A stretch of DNA of 64,000 nt, taken from positions 1 to 64,000 of IMG/VR virus record IMGVR_UViG_3300030107_001040; one strand, written 5' to 3'. The position numbers were made by a program, and so were the translations under genes. Position 1 is the stretch's first letter; every line of letters starts with the position of its first letter. This document shows, piece after piece, positions 142 through 519 of the stretch. Below the pieces are notes generated by a model. The model did no database searches, was not told the DNA's origin, and was given only the letters and a program-made list of their open reading frames with translations. This DNA is from a virus.

Positions 142-179
142 CGTTCATCCCATTAGGGACGCAAGTAAGTCACGGAACG
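142..179 (+). promoter_or_regulatory. Glutamine riboswitch aptamer 1 (glnA/Downstream-peptide family)
   Basis: CGTTCA-TCCC-ATTA-GGGA-CGCAAG...GGAACG; P1 CGTTC/GAACG; lies upstream of a YRG-motif peptide gene; late-type CATAAATA at 127-134. Confidence 0.75.
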
Positions 180-184
180 CATTA

Positions 185-357
185 CGTTCATCCTATGATC
201 CCATTTTTAATTGCCACTTCTTTAACTTGCTCTGACGCTCAAGTCTTAGTCGATAAGATGAAGACTTATAAGGTTGAAGAGGAAGTGCGAGCTGAAATGA
301 TTCAGGTCATTAAAGAAGAGACAAAGGATTGTTGGGACGGAAATGACTAAAGGAACG
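185..357 (+). promoter_or_regulatory. Glutamine riboswitch aptamer 2, split by an ORF in the P2 loop
   Basis: 5' half CGTTCATCCT (185-194) and 3' half GGGACGGAAATGACTAAAGGAACG (334-357) mirror aptamer 1. Confidence 0.65.
195..350 (+). CDS. Small hypothetical protein (51 aa) nested in the riboswitch
   Basis: Manual translation MIPFLIATSLTCSDAQVLVDKMKTYKVEEEVRAEMIQVIKEETKDCWDGND; hydrophobic N-terminus, two Cys. Confidence 0.65.
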   Translation: MIPFLIATSLTCSDAQVLVDKMKTYKVEEEVRAEMIQVIKEETKDCWDGND

Positions 358-390
358 GGCCTCAAAATCCAATTACTTTAGGAGTCAATC

Positions 391-519
391 ATGGCACAAG
401 TCACATATAGAGGTGTAAAATATAGCACCGACAAAAAGCAAACCTGCAAGGAGATCAATGCTGATCTAACCTACAGGGGAATCAAGCATACGGAGACTAA
501 AGCAGTCTGCGACATTTAG
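391..519 (+). CDS. DUF4278-like downstream peptide (42 aa)
   Basis: MAQVTYRGVKY...LTYRGIKH with two YRG motifs; SD AGGAG at 380-384. Confidence 0.85.
   Translation: MAQVTYRGVKYSTDKKQTCKEINADLTYRGIKHTETKAVCDI

Follow-up and report, generated by a model that had tools for sequence, protein, structure and literature searches.

A probable interlocked double glutamine aptamer enclosing a small gene in a cyanophage transcription unit

Locus, aptamer units and nested gene

The window, that is the whole stretch of DNA analysed here, comprises 64,000 nt (positions 1 to 64,000 of IMG/VR record IMGVR_UViG_3300030107_001040) and is DNA of a T4-like cyanomyovirus, a marine cyanophage. Between a tRNA and talC it contains two glutamine-aptamer units (142–357), a small gene nested in the second unit and a downstream peptide gene. 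The features are listed below, with x and y denoting the outer and inner aptamer and H the helix that they share.

6–79: tRNA, upstream neighbour of the riboswitch locus
128–134, + strand: ATAAATA motif, read from the sequence
142–179: compact unit 1, of the CGTTCA-TCCC-ATTA-GGGA type
142–146, + strand: CGTTC, 5′ strand of P1x in the outer aptamer, partner 353–357 (MFE fold)
148–159, + strand: P2x hairpin of the outer aptamer, TCCC-ATTA-GGGA (Rfam alignment)
160–167, + strand: J2/3 of the outer aptamer, CGCAAGTA (CGCAAGUA), including the AGUA half of loop E
168–172, + strand: AGTCA, 5′ strand of helix H (the shared P3), partner 344–348
175–189, + strand: P1y hairpin, P1 of the inner permuted aptamer (GAACG 175–179, loop CATTA, CGTTC 185–189)
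185–194: 5′ half of unit 2, CGTTCATCCT (CGTTCA-TCCT), adjoining the ATG at 195
191–201, + strand: 5′ strand of P2y, TCCT (191–194) plus the extension ATGATCC (195–201), which includes the nested start codon
195–350, + strand: nested gene, 51 aa, phrog_504 (PHROG E 1.7e-15)
326–337, + strand: 3′ strand of P2y, GGATTGT (326–332), bulged T333 and GGGA (334–337), encoding ..C-W-D
334–357: 3′ half of unit 2, GGGACGGAAATGACTAAAGGAACG, that is GGGA-CGGAAATGACTAAAG-GAACG, containing the stop TAA (348–350)
338–343, + strand: J2/3 of the inner aptamer, CGGAAA; relatives keep CGCAAA at synonymous sites
344–348, + strand: TGACT, 3′ strand of helix H (covariation, MFE)
347–352, + strand: CTAAAG, comprising the J3/1 AAAG half of loop E, the anti-SD 5′ strand and the nested stop
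353–357, + strand: GAACG, 3′ strand of P1x (pair counts, MFE)
376–384, + strand: anti-SD 3′ strand CTTTAG (376–381), overlapping the Shine-Dalgarno (SD) sequence AGGAG (380–384)
391–519, + strand: downstream peptide gene, 42 aa, DUF4278/IF17-like, with two YRG motifs
545–575, + strand: intrinsic terminator, a 9-bp stem (545–569) followed by a T run
619–1272: talC, downstream neighbour of the riboswitch locus

The ATAAATA motif is a possible T4-type late promoter, which would place the 5′ end of the RNA at ~140–142, and the terminator ends a transcription unit of ~430 nt. The sequence CATAAATAG is found again upstream of the aptamer in relatives, while other relatives carry TTGAC-N17-TATAAT ending 6–8 nt ahead of CGTTCA; a σ70 promoter scan of the leader in the window gave no match. 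Overlapping the terminator stem is a near-consensus promoter, TTGACA-N17-TACAAT (556–584), that would drive talC. In the cyanophage P-TIM40 the interval between the DUF4278 gene and talC gives a strong manA RNA match (RF01745, 141.7 bits; L002 1178–1372), which is missing from the equivalent place in the window.

The original prediction described a compact glutamine aptamer followed by a second one with its ends at 185–194 and 334–357, and both units are present with the sequences claimed. Unit 1 matches the Rfam glutamine model (RF01739) at 140–183 with 38.0 bits, above the gathering score of 35; in relatives unit 1 scores 25–35 bits, mostly under the gathering score. The original prediction had invoked the glutamine-II (Downstream-peptide) type, but in the Rfam search of the window the type 1 (glnA) model fits better (38 versus 22.8 bits), the glutamine-II model (RF01704) falling below its gathering threshold of 33 here and scoring 20–32.7 bits in relatives. 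Unit 2 has no Rfam match in the window because its 139-nt insert is larger than the model allows. We therefore scored natural compact or ORF-less analogues (L127, L300), and L127, a natural compact form of unit 2, reached 31.2 bits.

The predicted 51-codon ORF in the P2 loop of unit 2, with its ATG abutting the 5′ strand and its stop inside the 3′ half, has the correct coordinates and is a real gene. Across 46 distinct ORFs, the interior third-position variation, codon periodicity and indels in threes indicate that it is coding. In P-SSM7 and P-RSM4, phrog_504 carries the annotation T4-like gene cluster 430. Distant homologues at two loci (L057, L061) have an ordinary SD and leader and no aptamer halves, so the nested ORF is an independent gene. 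Its protein has two invariant Cys residues and a helical AlphaFold model (pLDDT 79) with no Foldseek match at E ≤ 0.001; a comparison with Pfam gave nothing significant, and in the Atlas it falls into hypothetical viral clusters only. A division of the unit-2 ORFs into several families was rejected, as BLAST joins all of them in one superfamily, from which phrog_6471, the family of the unit-1 ORFs, alone is separate.

The 3′ end of the gene behaves differently from its interior. In the 46 distinct ORFs the terminal codons TGG GAC GCA have no synonymous changes at all, while interior Asp codons vary (GAT:GAC ~34:7 in one column) and are usually GAT. Some relatives have the 3′ half downstream of a stop codon (TAG-GACGCA...) or of an earlier stop (L115), and ORFs of phrog_6471 use a different reading frame for it (GGA CGC AAG TAA). 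From these sequence patterns we conclude that the RNA is constrained independently of the nested coding sequence.

Several other arrangements were seen. Unit 1 is also split round a gene at five loci (L003 506–712; L045 964–1164; L115; L170 6564–6767; L335), where the nested ORF is phrog_6471 (T4-like gene cluster 429; 66–68 aa) and its stop is the TAA inside the conserved GCAAGTAA. L060 lacks the P1x 3′ strand and the SD because of a deletion, which fuses the region of the nested ORF with the downstream gene; L121 has lost the stop codon, and its nested ORF continues across the aptamer as far as the SD.

P-SSM7, P-TIM40, P-RSM4/S-TIM4 and ACG-2014d share this gene order and the split unit. 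A retrieval based on interior motifs of the ORF, with the aptamer-encoded ends excluded, returned 77 viral loci, and the aptamer halves expected to flank homologous small ORFs are present at both ORF ends in nearly all of them, CGTTCATCC(C/T)-ATG in front and GGGACGCAA...GGAACGG behind, far beyond what chance would give. Loci added by a pattern scan bring the set to ~150 distinct split units (cyanomyovirus). The locus matches 183 phage records, and one exact pattern matched more than 117 viral contigs. Among 185,579 species genomes scanned we found only ~10 real double units, all on marine MAG/SAG contigs of incoherent taxonomy, which look like phage DNA.

The element also turns up in MAG bins assigned to Dehalococcoidia, Poseidoniales and Euryarchaeota TMED129. 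In a contig assembled as 'Nonlabens xiamenensis' (NZ_RMVE01000006.1, 188,235 nt; L331), the flanks of the riboswitch are those of cyanophage P-TIM40 (188,632 nt), and this looks like cyanophage DNA inside a flavobacterial assembly. Eight loci (L026, L027, L037, L041, L097, L123, L168, L222) have a conserved insert of ~45 nt, GAAAAAACGGATCC-hairpin-GAGAAGGTTAATTTTCACCC, between GGAACGG and the SD; this insert separates the aptamer from the anti-SD partner and is possibly a further structured module.

Topology of the double aptamer

Covariation, the minimum free energy (MFE) fold and the Rfam alignment of an ORF-less relative all indicate that the two units are interlocked and are not two self-closed neighbouring aptamers. 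Three long-range helices span the nested gene. On an alignment of 133 sequences (A2), pairing in the interlocked structure reaches 97.9%, and six of its pairs have changed on both sides, a result equalled by none of 500 shuffles. The covariation across cyanophage homologs that the original prediction called for is thus present in P2y, H and P1, with the partners of P1 swapped.

In the interlocked model, the outer aptamer X would take the canonical type 1 (glnA) fold, composed of P1x, P2x, J2/3, helix H as P3 and the J3/1 AAAG. The inner aptamer Y would sit circularly permuted in the P3 'loop' of X, with P2y closing round the 51-codon gene, its J2/3 (CGGAAA) leading back into helix H, and the P1y hairpin closed by the linker between the units, which is always 3–6 nt long. 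Neither unit alone has all three of a J2/3 with AGUA, a P3 helix and a J3/1 GAAG (loop E): unit 1 supplies AGUA, unit 2 supplies AAAG/GAAG, and P3 would be helix H between the units, the arrangement in which the covariance model aligns L300.

The elements of the outer aptamer are strongly conserved. The junction pair of P1x is CG in 132 sequences and UA in 1, with zero unpaired, and an additional outer-pair change to U-A (CGTTTA with GAAACG) occurs at L222. P2x has 19 distinct stem types, and its first 4 bp are all paired in 127/133 sequences. J2/3 (160–167) is invariant in all 133 and agrees with the Rfam consensus CGGAAGUA.

Helix H pairs GUCA with UGAC and GUCG with CGAC without exception, and AUUCG with CGAAU (pair counts on A2: GC 122, GU 6, AU 5). 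A second class has an 8-bp form, AGCCGACU with AGCCGACU, and compensated variants of it (AGCCGACA with UGCCGACU; AGUUGACU with AGGCAACU), and ORF-less loci pair GGACGG with CCGACC. Helix H has AGUA next to it at one end and GAA/AAA at the other, which is the setting of P3 in the Rfam consensus (AAGUA-P3-GAAGG).

Helix H also contains recurring mismatches. In the second class and in ORF-less loci (L001 726–733 with 924–931; L272; L300), positions three and six hold C·A, A·C or A·A. Non-Watson-Crick oppositions are found in 46/133 sequences at column pair 73/336, across very different sequences, which suggests a selected non-canonical pair.

The P1y pair is GC in 113 sequences and CG in 19 (A2), the result of double changes: GCAACG, the 3′ strand of unit 1, and CGTTGA, the 5′ strand of unit 2, occur together in 19/133 sequences. 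These 19 double mutants were retrieved by a targeted pattern with the partner base left free, and shared descent is possible for them; the variants span many P2x stems, linkers, nested-ORF subfamilies and ORF-less forms. A scan with the partner base free gave 33 loci with GCAACG, 33/33 of them with CGTTGA, and the outer strands remain CGTTCA and GGAACG. Two targeted scans, including one for the reciprocal pattern, found no single mutants of P1y; many random matches of the reciprocal scan on the reverse-complement strand were removed by context. Two apparent single mutants (L199, L200) were rejected as unrelated DNA.

The long-range P2y pairs a 3′ GGGA with a 5′ UCCC, UCCU or UCUC, AAGA with UCUU, and, with one exception, AGGA with UCCU. 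Its two variable pairs on A2 are CG 90, UG 24, UA 17 and CG 112, UG 16, UA 4. The extension of P2y (195–201 with 326–332) is part of the MFE fold. The unconstrained ViennaRNA MFE structure of 138–400 (−64.0 kcal/mol) consists of P1x, P2x, H, P1y and a P2y whose extension takes in the AUG; for folding as a whole the z-score is no more than −1.47 in size. In the ORF-less locus L300, Infernal places RF01739 on the outer aptamer and treats 42 nt within P3 as an insert. The P1 (CGUUC/GAACG) and P2 covariation that defines RF01739 is found at these loci, but with the P1 partners swapped.

Expression platform, proposed control and alternatives

The predicted DUF4278 YRG peptide gene lies downstream with its two YRG motifs; it scores 25.1 bits against PF14105 (cut-off 25.3) and belongs to phrog_5049 (E 1.2e-13). 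DUF4278 genes are known to be associated with the glutamine riboswitch (PMC6212724, PMC2864571). An alternative helix joins CUAAAG (347–352) to CUUUAG (376–381), the last two bases of which open the SD AGGAG. Its variable pair, with column 431 on A2, is AU 55, GC 47 or GU 28. The combination of a UAA stop with CUUCAG was never seen, and a UGA stop occurs with CUUCAG or UUUCAG (n = 43), with CUUUAG (n = 22, a G-U pair) and with others. The alternative helix thus covaries, as do the five helices of the interlocked fold. Forcing it gives −62.3 kcal/mol, just 1.7 above the MFE, a gap that a two-state switch would give. On its sequence, the downstream SD region is predicted to pair with the end of the upstream ORF, the arrangement looked for in translational coupling.

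A different switch pairing had been proposed, in which TGACT (344–348) alternates between the AGTCA copies at 168–172 and 383–387. The complementarity to both copies is there; the mutual exclusion is not, as the pairing of 168–172 with 344–348 is the covarying shared P3 of the folded state. In relatives the sequence after GGAG varies with no compensation, and 383–387 was rejected as a switch partner.

We consider it probable that 140–575 is a small phage transcription unit with an interlocked double glutamine aptamer as its leader. The switch logic, namely ligand binding and the way in which each ORF responds to it, we infer as follows. Glutamine would bind at both sites, for the inner unit to judge from its conserved core nucleotides. 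Binding would stabilise the fold and withdraw CUAAAG from CUUUAG, freeing the SD of the IF17-like gene. This ON direction is taken from the known glutamine riboswitches, translational ON switches in which a helix that blocks the RBS of DUF4278/IF17 genes is melted (PMC6212724). In the stabilised fold the start region of the nested gene would also be occluded: an ATG that follows the P2 strand by 0–3 nt, with no SD or leader of its own and a stop in the 3′ half, should be blocked for initiation in the folded state. A ribosome elongating or terminating on the nested gene would melt P2y, H and P1x and expose the downstream SD, a form of translational coupling; the competition between translation and aptamer folding that had been predicted follows from this geometry. 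There is a tension in the scheme, as a nested gene translated at low glutamine should, by termination within the anti-SD helix, also activate the downstream gene.

Taken to its end, the proposal is a two-input device: glutamine at two interlocked sites and ribosomes moving over the gene embedded in the sensor would jointly determine the relative amounts of two small phage proteins, of which the IF17-like one would inhibit the glutamine synthetase of the host. We hold this fuller version tentatively, as a possibility and not as the expected outcome. A less elaborate account, which we regard as unlikely, is that the double aptamer is real and controls the IF17-like gene only, the nested gene being a passenger kept in a tolerant loop for genome economy. 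P2 loops, including those of P2x, accept non-coding inserts of variable length, up to ~40 nt, so that an insert in the loop need not in itself be regulatory. The same platform serves each of the four possible combinations of compact and split units and also ORF-less versions (L127, L160, L272, L300, L322, L330); triplets occur too, with three units in a row at L170. Against a mere passenger, the ATG lies 0–3 nt past the P2 5′ strand, without its own SD, in two unrelated ORF families (phrog_504/13397 and phrog_6471); the AUG itself is paired in P2y in many loci; and in 143/149 cases with a recognisable 3′ half that half contains the stop codon, which falls in the anti-SD helix.

The original prediction had the two aptamers in plain tandem. 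This would mean that 142–146 pairs with 175–179 and 185–189 with 353–357, leaving helix H and the 175–189 hairpin to the ligand-free state. The wild-type strands are able to pair both ways, nascent RNA up to position 184 folds unit 1 on itself, and the literature handles glutamine doublets as independent tandem switches (PMC9481103). The natural variants nevertheless speak strongly for the swapped pairs. On A2 the P1 helices of the side-by-side structure are unpaired in 19 and 20 of the 133 sequences with zero compensation, and the 19 GCAACG/CGTTGA variants break both of them while the swapped pairs stay Watson-Crick, so that neither aptamer closes on its own P1 as in a conventional tandem. 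Forcing the side-by-side model gives −57.6 kcal/mol, 6.4 worse than the MFE. Helix H has exactly the flanks of the Rfam P3, and by geometry a 1-nt connector would be too short to bridge its 5–8 bp to a self-closed P1. We thus judge the tandem arrangement very improbable.

Least probable is that unit 2 is a relic, its aptamer destroyed by the gene insertion and its halves kept by descent or as coding sequence: the missing Rfam match and a 3′ half that partly encodes W-D-A-N-D would fit, but the synonymous sites are frozen, the 3′ half is conserved when untranslated or in another frame, and P2y, H and P1x covary across the ORF, a conservation that extends over hosts with nested proteins just 30–40% identical.

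Comparison with known systems

Our literature search, which did not reach the original 2011 glutamine-binding paper (Ames & Breaker), found no account of the nested gene or of the swapped pairing. For cyanophages, a 2017 survey listed just two glutamine aptamers (PMC5473149). Counts of phage riboswitches seem to be too low, and most of those found here score below the Rfam threshold. The interlocked double aptamer would provide a natural example of a metabolite-binding aptamer with a protein-coding gene inside it, enclosed by three covarying helices predicted to span 140–215 nt, while riboswitch models presume compact non-coding aptamers. It would also tie phage control of host nitrogen assimilation, through IF17-like peptides, to intracellular glutamine, and it offers a natural model, small in size, of how translation can be linked with the sensing of a ligand. 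If the two-input reading is true, this would be the first natural riboswitch in which ribosomes translating the inside of the aptamer unfold it periodically, and many 'tandem' glutamine riboswitches in databases might be strand-swapped double aptamers.

The closest relative is the type 1 glutamine riboswitch (glnA RNA, RF01739), known from the Synechocystis gifB leader (PMC6212724; PMC2864571). The phage RNA shares its core (CGUUCA / P2 / CG(C/G)AAGUA / P3 / GAAGG / GAACG), its position upstream of a DUF4278/IF17-like gene, and an RBS-masking helix that should open on binding (ON). It differs in that the canonical fold is a composite of two units, with an inter-unit P3 and a P1 that spans ~215 nt; P3 holds a second, permuted core, and the P2 loop is filled by a protein-coding gene.

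Tandem glutamine aptamers are known and have been treated as independent (PMC9481103; PMC2864571), the doublets and triplets being described as pseudo-cooperative independent switches with 157 published doublets (PMC9481103). The phage loci likewise have two or three adjacent units, but these lie 3–6 nt apart, serve one platform, exchange their P1 strands and have P3 in common. In the tandem glycine riboswitch, too, two homologous aptamers in contact form one unit with one platform (PMC5066625); the glycine aptamers, however, retain their own P1 and meet through tertiary contacts, with no strand exchange and no nested gene.

For the glutamine-II aptamer, a domain-swapped homodimer in crystals is reported (Huang et al. 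2019, summarised in PMC7357161) and was judged a crystallisation artefact. There, as in the phage RNA, two aptamers build the P1-equivalent helix together, one contributing the 5′ strand and the other the 3′ strand; the crystal swap is intermolecular, whereas the phage swap takes place within one RNA and is kept by selection. So far, strand exchange between aptamer units had been seen only as this artefact of crystals, in the related glutamine-II RNA.

Genes in the loops of functional RNAs have other precedents. Group I introns carry ORFs in peripheral loops, and in the RNA phage MS2 a long-range RNA pairing is opened by upstream translation. Similarly, the phage element places a gene in the loop of a functional RNA, and a ribosome would remodel its long-range helices and unmask a downstream start. 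Neither of these known cases has a metabolite-binding aptamer, whereas in the cyanophage leader the helices that enclose the gene would themselves be the ligand sensor.
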